From positions 13,324-77,323 of the forward strand of contig CAZCQG010000003.1 in the NCBI GenBank assembly GCA_964500775.1: a stretch of 64,000 bases of DNA, read 5' to 3'. This stretch comes from an uncultured Campylobacterales bacterium. Lineage in GTDB: Bacteria > Campylobacterota > Campylobacteria > Campylobacterales > CAZCQG01. Positions 43,010 to 49,317 of the stretch are shown in pieces (positions within the stretch are counted from its first letter, which is position 1; the number at the start of each line of letters is the position of its first letter). A program made the translations under genes and the position numbers. The notes under the pieces were generated by a model, which did not search any database, was not told the origin of the DNA, and saw only the letters and a program-made list of their open reading frames with translations.

Positions 43010-44530
43010 CTACCAAGTAGAGCCTTTGCCGCTTGCGTAGCTTTTATTTTGTGATTTATTTTTATTGTAACCGCCGCCTGAAGCGTTATCTTTCTTTTGA
43101 TAGCCGCCGCCACTGCTTTTGTTTCTATCTCTAAAGCCGCCCTTACTTCTGTGTCTGCTATTTCTATTGCCACCGTTGTTTTTCTCTCTAGAGAGGAGAA
43201 GTTTTTTGAGTTTTTCGGCGCTGATTCCTATATGTTCCGGTCCTGCGACGCTTTTCTCGTCCATAAACATTGAGATGAGCTTCAACGTCGCCGTCGTCAA
43301 GTCCATATCGTCTTTGAGGAGATTGAGTATCTCGATGGCTTCGGATTTCACCTCTTGATTTCTGATTTTTTCTATATTTCTCGTGAGGTTAGAGTTGCTT
43401 ATCTCTTTTGCGCTCGGGATTTGTGCTAGCTCTATATCGGTTCTGATGAGTGATTTTATCTTGTCTAGCTCTCTAAATTCTTGTGGAGTGACAAACGTGA
43501 TAGCTATACCGCTAGCCCCGCCTCTTCCCGTTCTTCCGATTCTGTGTACGTAGCTTTCGGGATCAAAAGGGATATGGTAGTTAAACACGTGGCTTACGCC
43601 TGAAATGTCGATCCCTCTAGCCGCTACGTCGGTAGCGACCAAAATGTCGAGTTCACCGAGTTTAAAGCTTTTTATGATTGTTTCTCGTTGTCTTTGCTCC
43701 ATATCTCCGTGGAGACCGCCTGCCCCGTAACCGCGACCGATAAGCATAGTAGCTACTCTGTCTACCTCTTTTTTCATCCTACAAAAGACGATTGATTTTT
43801 GTTTTTCGCACGCATCGAGTAGTCTCGCGAGTGCGTCGTCTCTTTCGTGTTCGTCTATGACGTAGTATTGCTGTTTAATATTGACGTTCGCAGTCTCTTT
43901 CGTGCTGACCGTGATAAATTTCGGGTCTTTGAGGATAGTGTTTGCGAGATTTTTTATCGCCGTAGGCATCGTAGCCGAAAATAGCAATGTTTGTCGCTCA
44001 TTAGGGATAAAATCAAAAATCTCTTTGATGTCGTCCAAGAATCCCATATCGAGCATCTCATCCGCTTCGTCTAGTACGACGTATTTGGGCTTGAGCTTGA
44101 TTTTTCCGCTCTTTACAAGGTCAAGTAGTCTACCCGGAGTGGCTACTATGATGTGGACACCTTTTTCGATGATGTTGAGTTGCCTTGAATACGATTGTCC
44201 GCCGTAGACGGTTGCGGTGCGAATATCGTTATAGCGCCCGAGCTTGTAGAGTTCGTCGCTCACTTGTGTCGCTAGTTCTCTCGTGGGAGTGATGACGAGG
44301 ACTTGTCCTCGCTCTTTGGGGTCTATCGCGTTTAGTAGCGGTAACCCGAATGCGGCGGTCTTTCCCGTGCCGGTATGTGCTTGGGCGATGATGTCTAGCC
44401 CTTTCATCACTTCGGGGATCGCTAGGCTTTGTATCGGGCTAGGGACGGTAAACCCCGCCTCTTTTATCCCCTTGCTGATTGCTGCGTTGAAGCCGAATAC
44501 CTCAAAAGATATGTTTTCTTCAGTAGTCAT
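43010..44530 (-). CDS. DEAD-box ATP-dependent RNA helicase with Gly/Arg/Asn-rich C-terminal tail
   Basis: 506 aa with a Q-motif region, AQAHTGTGKT (motif I), DEAD (VLDEADEML), SAT and HRIGRTGRGG. The tail is NNGGNRNSRHRSKGGFRDRNKSSGGGY. Confidence 0.9.
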   Translation of the reverse strand: MTTEENISFEVFGFNAAISKGIKEAGFTVPSPIQSLAIPEVMKGLDIIAQAHTGTGKTAAFGLPLLNAIDPKERGQVLVITPTRELATQVSDELYKLGRYNDIRTATVYGGQSYSRQLNIIEKGVHIIVATPGRLLDLVKSGKIKLKPKYVVLDEADEMLDMGFLDDIKEIFDFIPNERQTLLFSATMPTAIKNLANTILKDPKFITVSTKETANVNIKQQYYVIDEHERDDALARLLDACEKQKSIVFCRMKKEVDRVATMLIGRGYGAGGLHGDMEQRQRETIIKSFKLGELDILVATDVAARGIDISGVSHVFNYHIPFDPESYVHRIGRTGRGGASGIAITFVTPQEFRELDKIKSLIRTDIELAQIPSAKEISNSNLTRNIEKIRNQEVKSEAIEILNLLKDDMDLTTATLKLISMFMDEKSVAGPEHIGISAEKLKKLLLSREKNNGGNRNSRHRSKGGFRDRNKSSGGGYQKKDNASGGGYNKNKSQNKSYASGKGSTW

Positions 44531-44653: not shown

Positions 44654-45274
44654 CTATTTTAGATATTCCAACATATTTATATAAAACCCCCTATGCTCTT
44701 TTAAAAATGCCGTAGCCGTGCGGTGGTCTTTGGTATGGAGATTTACAAATTCCCAATACTGTTTGGAATGATTGTGATATTTCGTGTGTGCTAATTCGTG
44801 GGTGATGACGTAGTCGATGACCCATTTGGGCGCAAAAGCCAATAATAGATTGAAACTCAATTTTTTAGACGCACTACAACTTCCCCATCGATTTTTAGCC
44901 GCCCTGATTCCGATAGCTACGTACTCCGTATCGAGAATCTCGGCTATTTCCGCTACTCTTTTTGCAAGATAGACGTTGAGTGCGTTTCGCAAGAATTTTT
45001 TGCCGTTTTTTTCCGAGAGCGCTATCCATTCCCCAAAAAGGAGAATCTCCCCTTTGTGCGATTCTATTTGTCGAGCGAAATATTCCGTAGCTTCTCTTTT
45101 TTGAAGTACGCTTTGGTGTATCCAATCGTGATTTTGACGGATGATACCCTCACATGCCTCTTTTGAGGTATATTTAGGGACGGAGAGGACGACATTGCTT
45201 GATTCGTCGATCCTTATGGTGATCCTGCGTGCTTTTTTTCGACGCTTTATTAGTATTGTAATATCGTTATTCAT
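44654..45274 (-). CDS. YgjP-like (DUF45 / M48-related) zinc metallohydrolase
   Basis: It carries the HELAH(x)KYHNHS motif. The start is moved to the ATG at 45274 (MNNDITILIKRRKKARRITIRI, a family-typical N-terminus). The ORF start at 45376 would overlap the divergent gene. Confidence 0.75.
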   Translation of the reverse strand: MNNDITILIKRRKKARRITIRIDESSNVVLSVPKYTSKEACEGIIRQNHDWIHQSVLQKREATEYFARQIESHKGEILLFGEWIALSEKNGKKFLRNALNVYLAKRVAEIAEILDTEYVAIGIRAAKNRWGSCSASKKLSFNLLLAFAPKWVIDYVITHELAHTKYHNHSKQYWEFVNLHTKDHRTATAFLKEHRGFYINMLEYLK

Positions 45275-45339
45275 CTCGCTAATTTTATCTATTTTCGTTA
45301 AAATTCCAAAGAAAAAATTATAGCTTAAAGGAATATAAA

Positions 45340-46068
45340 TTGAGCGAATCACTAAAAAAAATCGACCCCGAATCACAAGAATTCCAAGAGGAATTACAAA
45401 ACACCATTAAATTTACCGACAAAGTAGTTTCGCAATTTGAATTTGCCTATAACCCCGACGTAGAGATAGTCCAGTCGGTACAGTTTGGTCTGACGAGAAA
45501 CAAACTTATCTACGGCAAAAGATACTGCCCATGCTTCTTCGTGACCCAAAGTGCCGAGGATAGAATCTGCCCCTGTAAACCTGCGCTCAATGACGAGATT
45601 CCTAGCGAAGGAAAGTGTCACTGCGGGATATTCTGTACGCTCGAATATGCAGAAGAGCAGAAATGTATCGAAGAGCTAGAAGACGCGGCACACACCCACT
45701 CTAGGGGACTTAGCAAAGAAGAGTGCGAAATGCTCCTCAAAAAATCGCAACTCGACGGCGATGAACTCGAATCGCTTTTAGAGGCTAGGGCGCTCGGAAT
45801 GGTGGAATTTTATCTCGTAGACGTGCGGGAGTGGATGGAATATAGACACGGAAGAATTAGAGGCGTAGATTTCCTCGTGCCGACCACCACGTTCTATGAA
45901 TCGGTAAAGCAATTAGACGACGTAAAACAAAAAACAATCATTTTGTATTGCCACGTCGGAAGCAGAAGTGCCTACTGCCAAAGGATATTAAAGGACTTCG
46001 GTTTTGGTCATGTAGGGAATCTCACGTATGGAATCGTAAGTTATAAAGGTGATTTAGATAGAGGTTAG
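45340..46068 (+). CDS. ferredoxin-thioredoxin reductase catalytic-subunit-like domain fused to a rhodanese domain
   Basis: 242 aa. The N-terminal half has the CPC..CPC..CHC array (YCPCFF, ICPCKP, KCHCGIFC). The C-terminal half has a rhodanese active-site loop YCHVGSRSAY. The TTG start has AAGGA 7 nt upstream. Confidence 0.7.
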   Translation: MSESLKKIDPESQEFQEELQNTIKFTDKVVSQFEFAYNPDVEIVQSVQFGLTRNKLIYGKRYCPCFFVTQSAEDRICPCKPALNDEIPSEGKCHCGIFCTLEYAEEQKCIEELEDAAHTHSRGLSKEECEMLLKKSQLDGDELESLLEARALGMVEFYLVDVREWMEYRHGRIRGVDFLVPTTTFYESVKQLDDVKQKTIILYCHVGSRSAYCQRILKDFGFGHVGNLTYGIVSYKGDLDRG

Positions 46069-46109: not shown

Positions 46110-46562
46110 ATGAAAGTATTATTGATAAAAGACGTAAAAGGGGTGGGCAAAGCCGGCGAGATCAAAGAGGTCAAAGACGGCTACGGTCAGAACTTCCTCA
46201 TCGCGAAAGGGAACGCCAAACTCGCTACCAACGAAGTAGTGAATAAATGGAAGGCAGATCAAAAAAAGATCGCTGAAGAGCAAGCCGCAGAACTTGCAGA
46301 GCTAAAAAAACAAAATGACATTATCCAAGGAAAGACACTCAAACTAACGAAAAAAGTGGGTGCGAACGGCGCGTTGTACGGCGCTATCACAAAAGAGGAA
46401 TTGAGCGAAGCGCTCAAAGAGCAATATAATCTCGATATAGACAAAAAACATATCGAACTCGACCACCCGATAAAAAGCACGGGAATCTACGAAGTGACGA
46501 TAAAGCTCGGACACGGCATGCATCCAAGTATCAGCGTGGATGTAGAGGGGGAAAATGTTTAA
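46110..46562 (+). CDS. rplI: 50S ribosomal protein L9
   Basis: 150 aa with N-terminus [30 protein letters not shown]. Confidence 0.95.
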
Positions 46563-47091
46563 GGCGACTACCATACTCGCCTACAGAGGCGAAGAGGGCG
46601 CGGTCATCGGGGGAGACGGGCAGGTCTCTTTCGGCAATACCGTGATGAAAGGAAATGCCACGAAGATTCGCTCTCTCTATAACGGTAAGATTCTTAGTGG
46701 ATTCGCAGGAAGCACCGCCGATGCGTTCAATCTTTTTGATATGTTTGAAAATATATTAGAGAATCGCAAAGGGGAGTTGCTCAAATCGGTCGTCGATTTT
46801 AGTAAAGAGTGGCGCAAAGATAAATACTTGAGACGACTCGAAGCGATGATGATCGTGCTAGACCTCGACAATATCTTTATCCTAAGCGGTACCGGAGACG
46901 TCGTCGAACCTGAAGACCGCAAGATAGCATCCATCGGTAGCGGCGGTAATTTTGCTATTTCGGCAGCGCGTGCACTTGACAGACATGCGAATTTATCTCC
47001 AAAAGAGGTAGTGGAAAACTCCCTAAAAATAGCCGCCGAGCTTTGTATATACACCAACGACAATATAAAAATCCTAGAGTTAAAGAAGTGA
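46555..47091 (+). CDS. hslV: ATP-dependent protease subunit HslV
   Basis: 178 aa. TTILAYRG follows a short MFKA lead, with GSGGNFA further in. It overlaps rplI by 8 nt. Confidence 0.95.
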
Positions 47092-47095
47092 CGTT

Positions 47096-48427
47096 ATGCT
47101 AGAGATGACCCCAAAAGAGATAGTAAGTTATTTGGATCAGTATATTATCGGTCAAAAAGATGCCAAAAAAGCAGTAGCGGTAGCGCTTCGAAACCGTTAT
47201 CGAAGGATGCAGCTCCCAAAAGAGATACAAGAGGAGATTATGCCAAAAAATATCCTCATGATAGGCTCTACGGGTGTAGGCAAGACGGAGATCGCCAGAC
47301 GGATGGCGAAGATGATGGGATTTCCTTTTGTCAAAGTAGAGGCGAGTAAATACACCGAAGTGGGATTTGTCGGGCGCGACGTAGAATCGATGGTGCGCGA
47401 TTTGGTCGGCGAATCGATAAACCTTGTCCGCGATGAACATCGTGAAAAGATGACCGAGCAGATAGAAGAATACGTCATCAAAAAAATAGTAGAAAAGCTC
47501 CTCCCGCCGCTCCCGAAAGGCTCTACGGAGACAAAGCAAGAAGAGTATAAACACAGCTTTGAGAAGATGCGCCAAAAAGTGATAAGCGGAGACGTCGACC
47601 ACTTGAAGATTGAAATCCAAACTCCCAAAAAAGCCCCCGAATTTTCCGATAACGGTATGCCGCCGGAGATGGTGCGAGTACAAGAATCATTAATAAAAGT
47701 ATTTATGAGCGGCAACAAAGACGATCTCAAAAAAGAGGTCACCGTCAAAGAGGCAAAAGATATACTCAAAATTGAAGCCGCGGATAAACTGTTGGATGTG
47801 GAGCTTATCAAAAGCGAAGGGCTCAAAAGGGCAGAAGAGGGTGGTATCATCTTTATCGACGAGATAGACAAGATAGCCGTCTCTAACGGCAATAGCGGCA
47901 GACAAGATCCGAGTAAAGAGGGGGTACAAAGAGACCTCCTCCCTATCGTAGAAGGCTCTAGCATCTCTACAAAATACGGGCAGATAAAGTCCGACCATAT
48001 CCTTTTTATCGCCGCAGGGGCGTTTCACGTGAGTAAGCCTAGTGATCTTATCCCCGAACTTCAAGGACGTTTCCCATTAAGAGTAGAGATGAAGAGTTTG
48101 GACGAAGAGGCGCTGTATAAGATTCTTACTATGACCAAAAATTCGATTCTTTCGCAATACGAGGCACTTTTAGGAGTGGAAGAGCTTACGATTATTTTTG
48201 AAGAGGAGGCAATAAGGGCGATCGCCTCCCTCGCGCAAAATGCCAACGAAAAGACCGAAGACATCGGTGCTAGACGTTTGCATACTATCGTAGAGCGTGT
48301 TTTGGAGGACATCAGCTTTGAGGCGGATGAGCACAAAGGTGAGACCTACACCGTGACCAAAGCAATGGTACACGGTAAGCTCGACAATCTCATAAATGAC
48401 GTAGACGTCGCTAGATATATACTCTGA
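47096..48427 (+). CDS. hslU: ATP-dependent protease ATPase subunit HslU
   Basis: 443 aa. It is an AAA+ protein with GSTGVGKTEIARR (Walker A) and IIFIDEIDKI (Walker B). Confidence 0.95.
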   Translation: MLEMTPKEIVSYLDQYIIGQKDAKKAVAVALRNRYRRMQLPKEIQEEIMPKNILMIGSTGVGKTEIARRMAKMMGFPFVKVEASKYTEVGFVGRDVESMVRDLVGESINLVRDEHREKMTEQIEEYVIKKIVEKLLPPLPKGSTETKQEEYKHSFEKMRQKVISGDVDHLKIEIQTPKKAPEFSDNGMPPEMVRVQESLIKVFMSGNKDDLKKEVTVKEAKDILKIEAADKLLDVELIKSEGLKRAEEGGIIFIDEIDKIAVSNGNSGRQDPSKEGVQRDLLPIVEGSSISTKYGQIKSDHILFIAAGAFHVSKPSDLIPELQGRFPLRVEMKSLDEEALYKILTMTKNSILSQYEALLGVEELTIIFEEEAIRAIASLAQNANEKTEDIGARRLHTIVERVLEDISFEADEHKGETYTVTKAMVHGKLDNLINDVDVARYIL

Positions 48428-49317
48428 TGGAAGCAGTCACAAAATCGGGTTTTGTCTCGGTAGTAGGCAGACCAAATGCGGGAAAGAGCACTCTCTTGAA
48501 TTGGCTCGTGGGCGAACGTTTGGCGATGGTCTCGCACAAGGCGAACGCTACGAGAAAGCGGATGAATATCATCGTGATGCACGACAAAGATCAAATCATC
48601 TTCGTCGATACGCCGGGTATCCACCAAAAAGAGAAACTTATCAACCAATTTATGATGAAAGAGGTATTGCGCTCCATCGGCGATTGCGACTTGCTTATTT
48701 TTTTGGCTCCCGTCACGGATAGTACGTCTCATTACGAGGAGTTTCTAGAACTAAGCGAAGGGAAAAAACACATTCTTGCCCTCGCCAAAAGTGATACGCT
48801 TGATAGAGAAGAGACGCTAAAAAAGATAAAAGAGTATGAAAAGTTTCAAGATTCTTATCTCGAACTCGTACCCGTAAGCTCCAAAAAAGAGGTCGGGAAA
48901 AAAGAGCTGCTTGATTGCATCGTAAAATACCTTCCTGATTCTCCTTACCTCTTCGACCCCGAAGACCTGACCACCGAAAACTTGCGCGGGATCTACAAAG
49001 AGATCATACGTGAAGCGATATTTGAAAAACTCTCCGATGAGATTCCTTATGAGGCGGATGTCCTTATCACAAAATTTGAAGAGCTAAAGGGCTTGGATAG
49101 AATCTACGCGACGATAGTGGTGGAAAAAGAGACCCAAAAGGCGATGATAATAGGCAAAGGTGGCGCAACGCTCAAAAGGGTAGGGAGCTATGCAAGAGAA
49201 AAGATGGAAGAGTTTTCTCAAAAGAAAGTCTATCTCAACCTTTTTGTTTCGGTAAAGCGAGGGTGGAGTAAGAGCAAAAAAGGTTTGAAAGAGTTTGGAT
49301 ATAAAATCGATGATTAA
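48427..49317 (+). CDS. era: GTPase Era
   Basis: 296 aa with GRPNAGKSTL (G1), DTPG (G3) and a C-terminal KH domain. A TGATG junction overlaps hslU by 1 nt. Confidence 0.95.
   Translation: MEAVTKSGFVSVVGRPNAGKSTLLNWLVGERLAMVSHKANATRKRMNIIVMHDKDQIIFVDTPGIHQKEKLINQFMMKEVLRSIGDCDLLIFLAPVTDSTSHYEEFLELSEGKKHILALAKSDTLDREETLKKIKEYEKFQDSYLELVPVSSKKEVGKKELLDCIVKYLPDSPYLFDPEDLTTENLRGIYKEIIREAIFEKLSDEIPYEADVLITKFEELKGLDRIYATIVVEKETQKAMIIGKGGATLKRVGSYAREKMEEFSQKKVYLNLFVSVKRGWSKSKKGLKEFGYKIDD

Follow-up and report, generated by a model that had tools for sequence, protein, structure and literature searches.

In a stretch of 64,000 nucleotides from an uncultured Campylobacterales bacterium (contig CAZCQG010000003.1, positions 13,324 to 77,323; hereafter the window, meaning the whole analysed stretch), one forward-strand gene joins a reductase domain of the ferredoxin:thioredoxin reductase (FTR) type to a rhodanese domain through a conserved linker. 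The product is proposed to be a cytoplasmic two-domain enzyme. Both catalytic sites are intact and the same fusion recurs in many Campylobacterota; the finding is solid and widespread, but it is made of familiar modules. The activity favoured here, with reservation, is a ferredoxin-driven reduction of the persulfide that the rhodanese cysteine would carry.

Two sets of relatives are used throughout. A search of 5.8 billion proteins found 1793 relatives, and the best 120 cluster representatives (the 120 homologues) are 237–251 residues long, contain both Pfam domains and are 58–100% identical to the protein. In addition, one genome per GTDB species was scanned, in which a relative is encoded in at least 524 species; the best 80 of these are referred to as the 80 loci. 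The features of the gene are as follows.

45340..46068, + strand: complete open reading frame (ORF) of 242 residues with a TTG start, comprising a domain like FTR or ferredoxin:disulfide reductase (FDR), a linker and a rhodanese domain (read from the sequence)
45328..45332, + strand: Shine-Dalgarno-like AAGGA, 7 nt 5' of the TTG start (read from the sequence)
45391..45663, + strand: FeThRed_B, the ferredoxin:thioredoxin reductase catalytic chain-like domain, residues 18–108 (Pfam PF02943, E = 3.3e-28)
45526..45624, + strand: cysteine array C63-P-C65, x11, C77-P-C79, x13, C93-H94-C95 (translation and alignment to the FTR catalytic subunit, FTRc)
45634..45636, + strand: C99, a seventh cysteine (CHCxxxC), present in 120 of 120 homologues
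45691..45726, + strand: linker motif H118-x-H120-S-R-G-L-S-K-x-E-C129 (alignment)
45763..46047, + strand: rhodanese domain, residues 142–236 (Pfam PF00581, E = 6.9e-13)
45949..45969, + strand: rhodanese active-site loop C204-H-V-G-S-R-S, of the sulfurtransferase type CxxGxR[ST] (translation and alignment)
45976..45978, + strand: C213, nine residues past the active-site cysteine on the next helix, present in 120 of 120 homologues

Two conserved modules in one polypeptide

The N-terminal domain matches the FeThRed_B profile with 98.2 bits against a Pfam cutoff of 22 and is thereby a member of the FTR catalytic-subunit superfamily. Around the array the translation reads ...YC63PC65-FFVTQSAEDRI-C77PC79-KPALNDEIPSEGK-C93HC95GIFC99.... 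All six cysteines and the histidine are in register with the FTRc arrays of Synechocystis and spinach (1dj7, 2pvd and 2pu9; HMMER alignments), and the six-cysteine pattern CPC...CPC...C[HY]C is likewise in register with 1dj7, 2pvd and 4tpu. By alignment to FTRc, C63, C77, C79 and C93 are presumably the cluster ligands, C65 and C95 the redox-active pair, and H94 the catalytic histidine, and the domain would bind a [4Fe-4S] cluster beside a redox-active disulfide. Each of the six cysteines is present in all 120 homologues, and H94, the active-site histidine of classical FTR, is invariant both in a 50-sequence alignment and in the 80 loci.

The spacing within the array is x11/x13 in this protein and x11–18/x13 across the 80 loci, the second spacer being invariant at 13. 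It differs from the classical FTRc spacing CPC-x16-CPC-x8-CHC and comes closer to the x14/x12 seen in two FDR structures, 4TPU and 7PWE. The same two structures are the best sequence matches of the reductase domain among solved structures (4TPU with E = 4e-8, 7PWE with E = 4e-4), whereas the FTRc chains 1DJ7, 2PVD and 2PU9 reach only about 0.01–0.02; in sequence, the domain is thus nearer to the archaeal and bacterial ferredoxin:disulfide reductases than to plant-type FTR. A Foldseek search with the N-terminal half of the predicted model returns 7PWE, 1DJ7 and 4TPU at a root-mean-square deviation (rmsd) of 2.5–2.7 Å over about 95 residues. No NCBIfam model reaches its cutoff; the top one is the 'FtrB family double-selenoprotein' NF041072, which scores 64.6 bits where 160 are required. 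A selenoprotein variant can be dismissed, since the redox-active residues are cysteines and the 80 loci contain no in-frame TGA.

The C-terminal domain matches the Rhodanese profile with 49.4 bits against a Pfam cutoff of 22.2, and the C-terminal half of the model finds many single-domain rhodaneses by Foldseek at an rmsd of about 2 Å. The translation around its active site reads ...LYC204HVGSRSAYC213..., in which the six-residue loop CxxGxR[ST] with its catalytic cysteine is of the catalytically active type. C204, kept in 119 of the 120 homologues, would carry a persulfide and transfer sulfane sulfur, and the loop C-x-x-G-[SG]-R-S is found in all 80 loci. Among NCBIfam models, those of MoeZ/MoeB come nearest for this part, through their rhodanese ends, but each falls far short of its cutoff. 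A rhodanese of the arsenate-reductase/Cdc25 type was rejected, the loop being the six-residue sulfurtransferase form and not the seven-residue CX5R. Mean identity is 67% in the FTR part and 62% in the rhodanese part; as overall conservation is this similar, both parts appear to be under comparable selection.

The initial annotation of this DNA had described the array as CPC-x11-CPC-x13-CHC and the loop as CHVGSRS, which the translation matches exactly, and had read the protein as an FTR–rhodanese fusion, which the two Pfam profiles bear out with the E values listed above. It had also noted that no gene for the FTR variable subunit (FTRv) is adjacent. This holds as well: the direct neighbours of the fusion gene encode a YgjP-like metallopeptidase and ribosomal protein L9, not FTRv, and FeThRed_A, the variable-subunit domain, has no match among the scanned small ORFs of the 64-kb window. 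Regarding the gene start, homologues align from residue 4–7 onward and K7, D9, P10 and S12 are conserved, so the conserved N-terminus supports the TTG codon.

Beyond the two active sites, the family possesses residues of its own. The seventh cysteine, C99, is replaced by Leu in classical FTRc and by Val or Ser in the FDRs 4TPU and 7PWE, and is shared with stand-alone relatives from Nitrospirota and Campylobacterota (P0132, P0146 and P0150); it is specific to an FTR-like subfamily that includes these stand-alone proteins. In the linker, H120, R122 and E128 are invariant, while H118, S121, G123, L124 and C129 are conserved to at least 90%. C129, present in 109 of 120 homologues (91%), lies on a helix preceding the canonical rhodanese fold, and the LSKxEC part of the linker, C129 included, is also kept in stand-alone rhodanese relatives. 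C213 aligns with an Ala of PspE and is replaced by Val or Ala in the more distant fusions P0124 and P0123. These residues (C99, C129, C213 and the HxHSRGL motif) might form an extra thiol relay or a metal site.

The initial annotation had called for a survey of the fusion's spread. Of the at least 524 species with a relative, every named one belongs to Campylobacterota, and the best 80 all fall in this phylum, with Sulfuricurvum, Sulfurimonadaceae, Sulfurovum, Arcobacteraceae, and 'Helicobacteraceae'/Campylobacterales metagenome-assembled genomes from sulfidic sites. Isolates with the fusion include Nitrosophilus alvini (74% identity; family Nitratiruptoraceae) and Sulfurospirillum, and the public data contain an identical protein (100% identity; P0001, locus L081). 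We propose that the fusion belongs to the core genome of free-living Campylobacterota, most of them sulfur-associated. As a pointer to sulfur metabolism, the taxonomic link to sulfur-associated members is only circumstantial. A profile search of 1.84 billion representatives clustered at 50% identity gave 11,910 matches. Among the best 150 of these, only about five clusters are full-length fusions (P0121–P0125), the others being fragments, stand-alone halves and unrelated multi-rhodanese proteins. No fusion outside Campylobacterota was seen in these best 150, a range that distant or independent fusions elsewhere would escape. To judge from sequence, the fusions form one compact family.

The initial annotation had named an assembly or frameshift artefact as what would refute the fusion, that is, two genes wrongly joined, or a decaying gene whose reductase domain no longer binds a cluster. 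Nothing was found for this explanation beyond a few public fragments that look frameshifted or truncated (P0126–P0128 and P0130). In all 80 loci a single high-scoring segment pair extends over both domains with no internal stop, the 120 closest representatives are full-length, and the presumed cluster ligands are invariant. The artefact is rejected, and its probability is negligible.

An AlphaFold2 model of the whole protein, built from the 50-sequence alignment, is confident within the domains, as its mean pLDDT is 89.3 and 166 residues reach at least 90; its pTM is 0.64. The linker has a lower pLDDT of 74–82. Given this pTM and the less confident linker, the relative orientation of the two domains is not defined by the model. 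No solved chain covering both halves was matched by Foldseek, the best query TM-score being 0.39.

A possible persulfide reductase and competing explanations

In FTR, after the first electron has been taken up, the exposed cysteine of the first CPC attacks the substrate disulfide, and the second electron resolves the mixed disulfide. Dithiol proteins, furthermore, reduce the persulfides of rhodaneses and thereby liberate H2S, as in the pairs GlpE/thioredoxin and 3-MST/thioredoxin. Because an FTR-type site, a competent sulfurtransferase cysteine and a flexible conserved linker occur in one chain, the most economical assumption is that the rhodanese cysteine is the substrate site of the reductase. 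The protein may accordingly be imagined as a ferredoxin-driven [4Fe-4S] reductase of persulfides or sulfane sulfur (or, in net terms, of thiosulfate), by analogy with the Npsr/CoADR-rhodanese flavoproteins; this is the reading to which we incline, at somewhat less than even confidence.

In such a mechanism, C63, C77, C79 and C93 would hold the [4Fe-4S] cluster beside the redox-active C65/C95 pair, with H94 between the last two cysteines and no variable subunit involved. The persulfide on C204 would come from thiosulfate, from polysulfide or from other persulfides, whether protein-bound or of low molecular weight. Reduced ferredoxin would give two successive electrons to the cluster/disulfide centre; the exposed C65 thiolate would then attack the persulfide on C204, either of its own chain or of the partner chain in a homodimer, releasing HS− and leaving a C65–C204 mixed disulfide, which the second electron would resolve. 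The net reaction would be a ferredoxin-dependent reduction of persulfide or sulfane sulfur (or thiosulfate) to H2S, which might serve in sulfane-sulfur homeostasis or in supplying sulfide. Architecture, conservation and distribution are observed; cluster binding, ferredoxin as the donor, the persulfide substrate and the direction of the reaction are inferred.

The persulfide-reductase reading is supported by the 99–100% conservation of both sites in the 120 homologues, by firm domain scores and folds, and by the precedent of Npsr, a flavoprotein reductase with a C-terminal rhodanese whose surface cysteine is the initial sulfur acceptor and which reduces persulfides and polysulfide to H2S, not bulky disulfides (PMC7969121). 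It also accords with the fused redox partners of other FTR-like domains (4TPU carries a rubredoxin, 7PWE a glutaredoxin), and with the named carriers of the gene, namely Sulfuricurvum, Sulfurimonadaceae, Sulfurovum, Sulfurospirillum, Arcobacteraceae and Nitrosophilus.

Several observations weigh on the other side. No sox, sqr, psr, dsr, thioredoxin, ferredoxin or cysteine desulfurase gene recurs as a neighbour in the 80 loci; the surroundings are housekeeping genes (argG, rplI, hslVU, era, the YgjP-like peptidase, rarA and slyD) and provide no functional linkage. Subunits of a 2-oxoacid:ferredoxin oxidoreductase lie near the fusion in only two loci, directly upstream in L061 (3227–5806) and a few genes upstream in L084 (1–1686), which is too rare to serve as evidence. 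In the one neighbourhood examined of a stand-alone Nitrospirota FTR-like gene (P0317, two contigs), no rhodanese gene lies nearby, and hence there is no 'Rosetta stone' support from that side. The proposed mechanism also leaves C99, C129, C213 and the HxHSRGL motif unexplained, and the AlphaFold2 model, with its pTM of 0.64, offers no confident placement of C204 at the C65/C95 site. The ferredoxin-driven reductase suggested in the initial annotation is therefore strengthened by the architecture, the conserved residues and the Npsr precedent, and gains nothing from a neighbourhood without a link to sulfur metabolism.

Three other functions have to be weighed against it. The protein may instead be a ferredoxin:thioredoxin or general protein-disulfide reductase, whose FTR-like domain would pass electrons to another protein, a thioredoxin or a glutaredoxin-like one, in the manner of FTR and FDR, the rhodanese serving as a docking, regulatory or sulfane-sensing accessory in place of the variable subunit. 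The active site is FTR-like and includes the histidine that the FDRs have replaced by tyrosine, FDRs reduce specific thioredoxin or methanoredoxin partners (PMC6262447), and a housekeeping context with near-universal presence in the clade would fit general redox maintenance. However, the rhodanese cysteine and its loop are kept as strictly as the reductase site, which is unexpected for a mere scaffold, and no thioredoxin-like gene is linked to the fusion in the window or in the related loci; this explanation is considered unlikely. Were it to hold, the protein would still represent an FTR system in non-photosynthetic chemolithotrophs with the reductive tricarboxylic acid (rTCA) cycle, relevant to the proposed origin of FTR in such organisms. 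A biosynthetic sulfur relay has a similarly low standing. Here a cysteine desulfurase would load the rhodanese with a persulfide destined for a sulfur-carrier protein, a tRNA thiolase or an Fe-S/methylthiotransferase enzyme, and the FTR-like domain would provide two electrons for sulfide release or for a disulfide between the rhodanese and its acceptor. The rhodanese domain indeed finds its closest counterpart in MoeZ/MoeB, enzymes that activate sulfur carriers and end in a C-terminal rhodanese, but at 39.7 bits against a cutoff of 647. Likewise, an operon is probably shared with the translation-associated rplI and era, yet the argG-rplI-hslVU-era order looks inherited and not like functional coupling. 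ThiS is encoded about 4 kb downstream in one locus, but no gene for an E1 enzyme, ThiS/MoaD, cysteine desulfurase or thiolase is conserved nearby.

The presence of C213 in 120 of 120 and of C129 in 109 of 120 close homologues, together with the retention of C129 in stand-alone relatives of the rhodanese module, would also suit a rhodanese that acts as a thioredoxin surrogate: C204 would form a disulfide with C213 or C129, be re-reduced by the FTR-like domain and reduce other targets, with no persulfide chemistry at all. This is improbable, even more so than the two preceding functions, as C213, five residues into the post-loop helix, takes the place of a small residue there (Ala in PspE) and becomes Val or Ala in distant fusions, and the loop is of the sulfurtransferase type.

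Taken further, the persulfide-reductase reading would describe a small, flavin-free [4Fe-4S] ferredoxin:persulfide reductase (a 'depersulfidase'), an unrecognised activity in the core genome of free-living Campylobacterota. Through it, sulfane-sulfur homeostasis or the supply of sulfide in the cytoplasm would draw directly on low-potential ferredoxin, a pool that 2-oxoacid:ferredoxin oxidoreductases and the rTCA cycle feed. This wider proposal is put forward only tentatively. To our knowledge, FTR-type enzymes are the only disulfide reductases with an Fe-S cluster in place of a flavin, and we know of no characterised member that acts on anything other than thioredoxin- or glutaredoxin-like proteins. 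Sulfur-oxidising Campylobacterota dominate vents, sulfidic caves and aquifers. If the proposal is true, FTR-type chemistry would be widened from disulfides to persulfides by a hard-wired rhodanese, and these bacteria would gain a ferredoxin-linked route for reactive sulfane sulfur. Because the protein is small, easy to assay and shared by hundreds of species, the hypothesis can be tested directly.

Relation to known reductases

FDRs are Fe-S disulfide reductases related to FTRc (PMC6262447, PMC7278568). The fusion resembles the FDR of Methanosarcina acetivorans (4TPU) and the glutaredoxin-FDR of Desulfotalea psychrophila (7PWE) in its six-cysteine FTR-like fold, in the apparent absence of a variable subunit, in its similar cysteine spacing (x14/x12 in theirs, x11/x13 here) and in carrying a redox partner within the same polypeptide. 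There are also differences: the fused partner is a C-terminal rhodanese, whereas theirs is a rubredoxin or a glutaredoxin; the CHC histidine of plant-type FTR is kept in all 80 loci, where 4TPU and 7PWE have CYC with a tyrosine; and the invariant C99 is additional. In the case of the 4TPU type specifically, 4TPU is the closest structure, but the rubredoxin domain for electron entry has no match in the fusion and the tyrosine is absent.

Compared with classical FTR, the fusion belongs to the same Pfam family, shares the CPC...CPC...CHC pattern with its histidine, has the seven residues in register and superposes at an rmsd of 2.7 Å over 95 residues (Foldseek). In contrast, the sequence similarity is weak (E of about 0.01–0.02), the spacing is x11/x13 and not x16/x8, a rhodanese is fused, no FTRv gene was found among the scanned ORFs of the window, and the organism is a non-photosynthetic chemotroph. 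The fusion is hence neither a classical FTR, from which it departs in spacing and in the variable subunit, nor a 4TPU-type FDR.

The NADH-dependent persulfide reductase (Npsr) and the CoA-disulfide reductase (CoADR)-rhodanese enzymes (CoAPR; 3NT6, 8A56 and 6PFZ) share the arrangement of a reductase followed by a C-terminal single-cysteine rhodanese, and the rhodanese domains of all three are among the structure and sequence matches. Their reductase is an FAD/NADH pyridine-nucleotide disulfide oxidoreductase with bound coenzyme A, whereas the present one is a small FTR-like domain with a predicted [4Fe-4S] cluster, presumably fed by ferredoxin; it has no Pyr_redox match, and only the rhodanese part aligns. 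Npsr would thus be a functional analogue only and not a relative of the reductase module. The closest relatives of the N-terminal domain are stand-alone FTR-like proteins with CHCGIFC from Nitrospirota and Campylobacterota (P0146, P0317 and P0132), which share the seventh cysteine and a similar spacing but have no rhodanese domain.

The architecture itself is not a discovery, because public databases already label the protein 'ferredoxin-thioredoxin reductase catalytic domain-containing protein' or 'FTR catalytic subunit/rhodanese-related sulfurtransferase'. The initial annotation was aware of no biochemical characterisation of the fusion; similarly, neither a description nor a characterisation was found in the searchable full-text literature, a scope outside which lies the survey of FTRc-like proteins by Balsera et al. 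2013 (Planta), said to treat their 'structural diversification' and perhaps to list this architecture. A transcriptome paper on Sulfurovum indicum S8 contains two up-regulated rhodanese-like genes, for which a link to the fusion family could not be made.

Genomic surroundings and divergent relatives

The genes flanking the fusion in the window, and the stand-alone FTR-like genes found upstream of it in other genomes, are listed here.

46110..49317, + strand: rplI, hslV, hslU and era, co-oriented and directly downstream (Pfam)
44654..45274, − strand: YgjP-like metallopeptidase gene, divergent (Pfam PF01863, E = 6e-39)
L067 2960–3304, L069 2651–2995 and L084 5001–5315: stand-alone FTR-like genes upstream of the fusion

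No terminator-like site was found in the 41-nt gap between the fusion gene and rplI, and the fusion gene probably forms one transcription unit with rplI, hslV, hslU and era, as the gene layout suggests. A gene for a YkuD-type L,D-transpeptidase, also co-oriented, follows era. On the other side, the longest YgjP-like frame (44654–45376, −) has a GTG start and would share 37 nt with the beginning of the fusion gene; its Pfam match, together with an internal Met (MNNDITIL...), points to a true start near 45274, leaving a divergent intergenic region of about 65 nt. Further upstream in the window are genes for a DEAD-box helicase, a tandem Usp protein and a 4HBT thioesterase. No genes for a ferredoxin (CxxCxxCxxxCP) or a thioredoxin (CGPC-type) were found when the window was searched for these motifs.

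Across the 80 loci, the fusion gene lies directly 5' of rplI in 54, with era following in 51 and hslVU in 30. In 47 of the 72 parsed loci the gene immediately upstream is argG, recognised by eye as encoding argininosuccinate synthase. Campylobacter jejuni appears to have argG right beside rplI; if so, the fusion gene would have been lost in host-associated lineages. Alternatively, a YgjP-like gene is upstream in 13 of the 80 loci and rarA downstream in 10, while slyD, fabD and similar genes are near the fusion in others. The conserved position looks like inherited gene order within a housekeeping block and not like functional coupling; such a position suggests constitutive expression. In about 24 of the 54 syntenic loci, hslVU is missing between rplI and era (for example L019, L020, L029 and L037, within the range L019–L075). 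These include most of the Sulfuricurvum loci, and in that lineage the HslVU protease seems to have disappeared or to be encoded elsewhere.

In some Campylobacterota, the stand-alone FTR-like gene listed above, encoding 104–114 residues with the full CPC...CPC...CHCGIFC, lies directly upstream of the fusion on the same strand; its product could be a heterodimer partner that replaces the absent variable subunit. In L022 (2950–3318), the gene directly upstream encodes a stand-alone paralogue of the linker helix plus rhodanese (122 residues, loop CQAGIKS). In the Nitrospirota locus L082 (2832–5661), the stand-alone FTR-like gene (CHCGIFC) has genes for an L-aspartate-oxidase-like flavoprotein and an HTH_8 regulator on one side and an ABM-domain gene on the other, and the nuo (complex I) operon comes shortly after.

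Two family members are divergent. P0124, from an uncultured Sulfurovum, has 308 residues with an extra C-terminal tail of about 75 residues, possesses neither the HxHSRGL motif nor C213, and is mis-annotated as 'Rubredoxin'. P0133 (155 residues) keeps the N-terminal helix and the rhodanese but has lost the core with the cysteine array. Finally, the DEAD-box helicase of the window (43010–44530, −) has a low-complexity C-terminal tail of about 80 residues rich in Gly, Asn, Ser and Lys.

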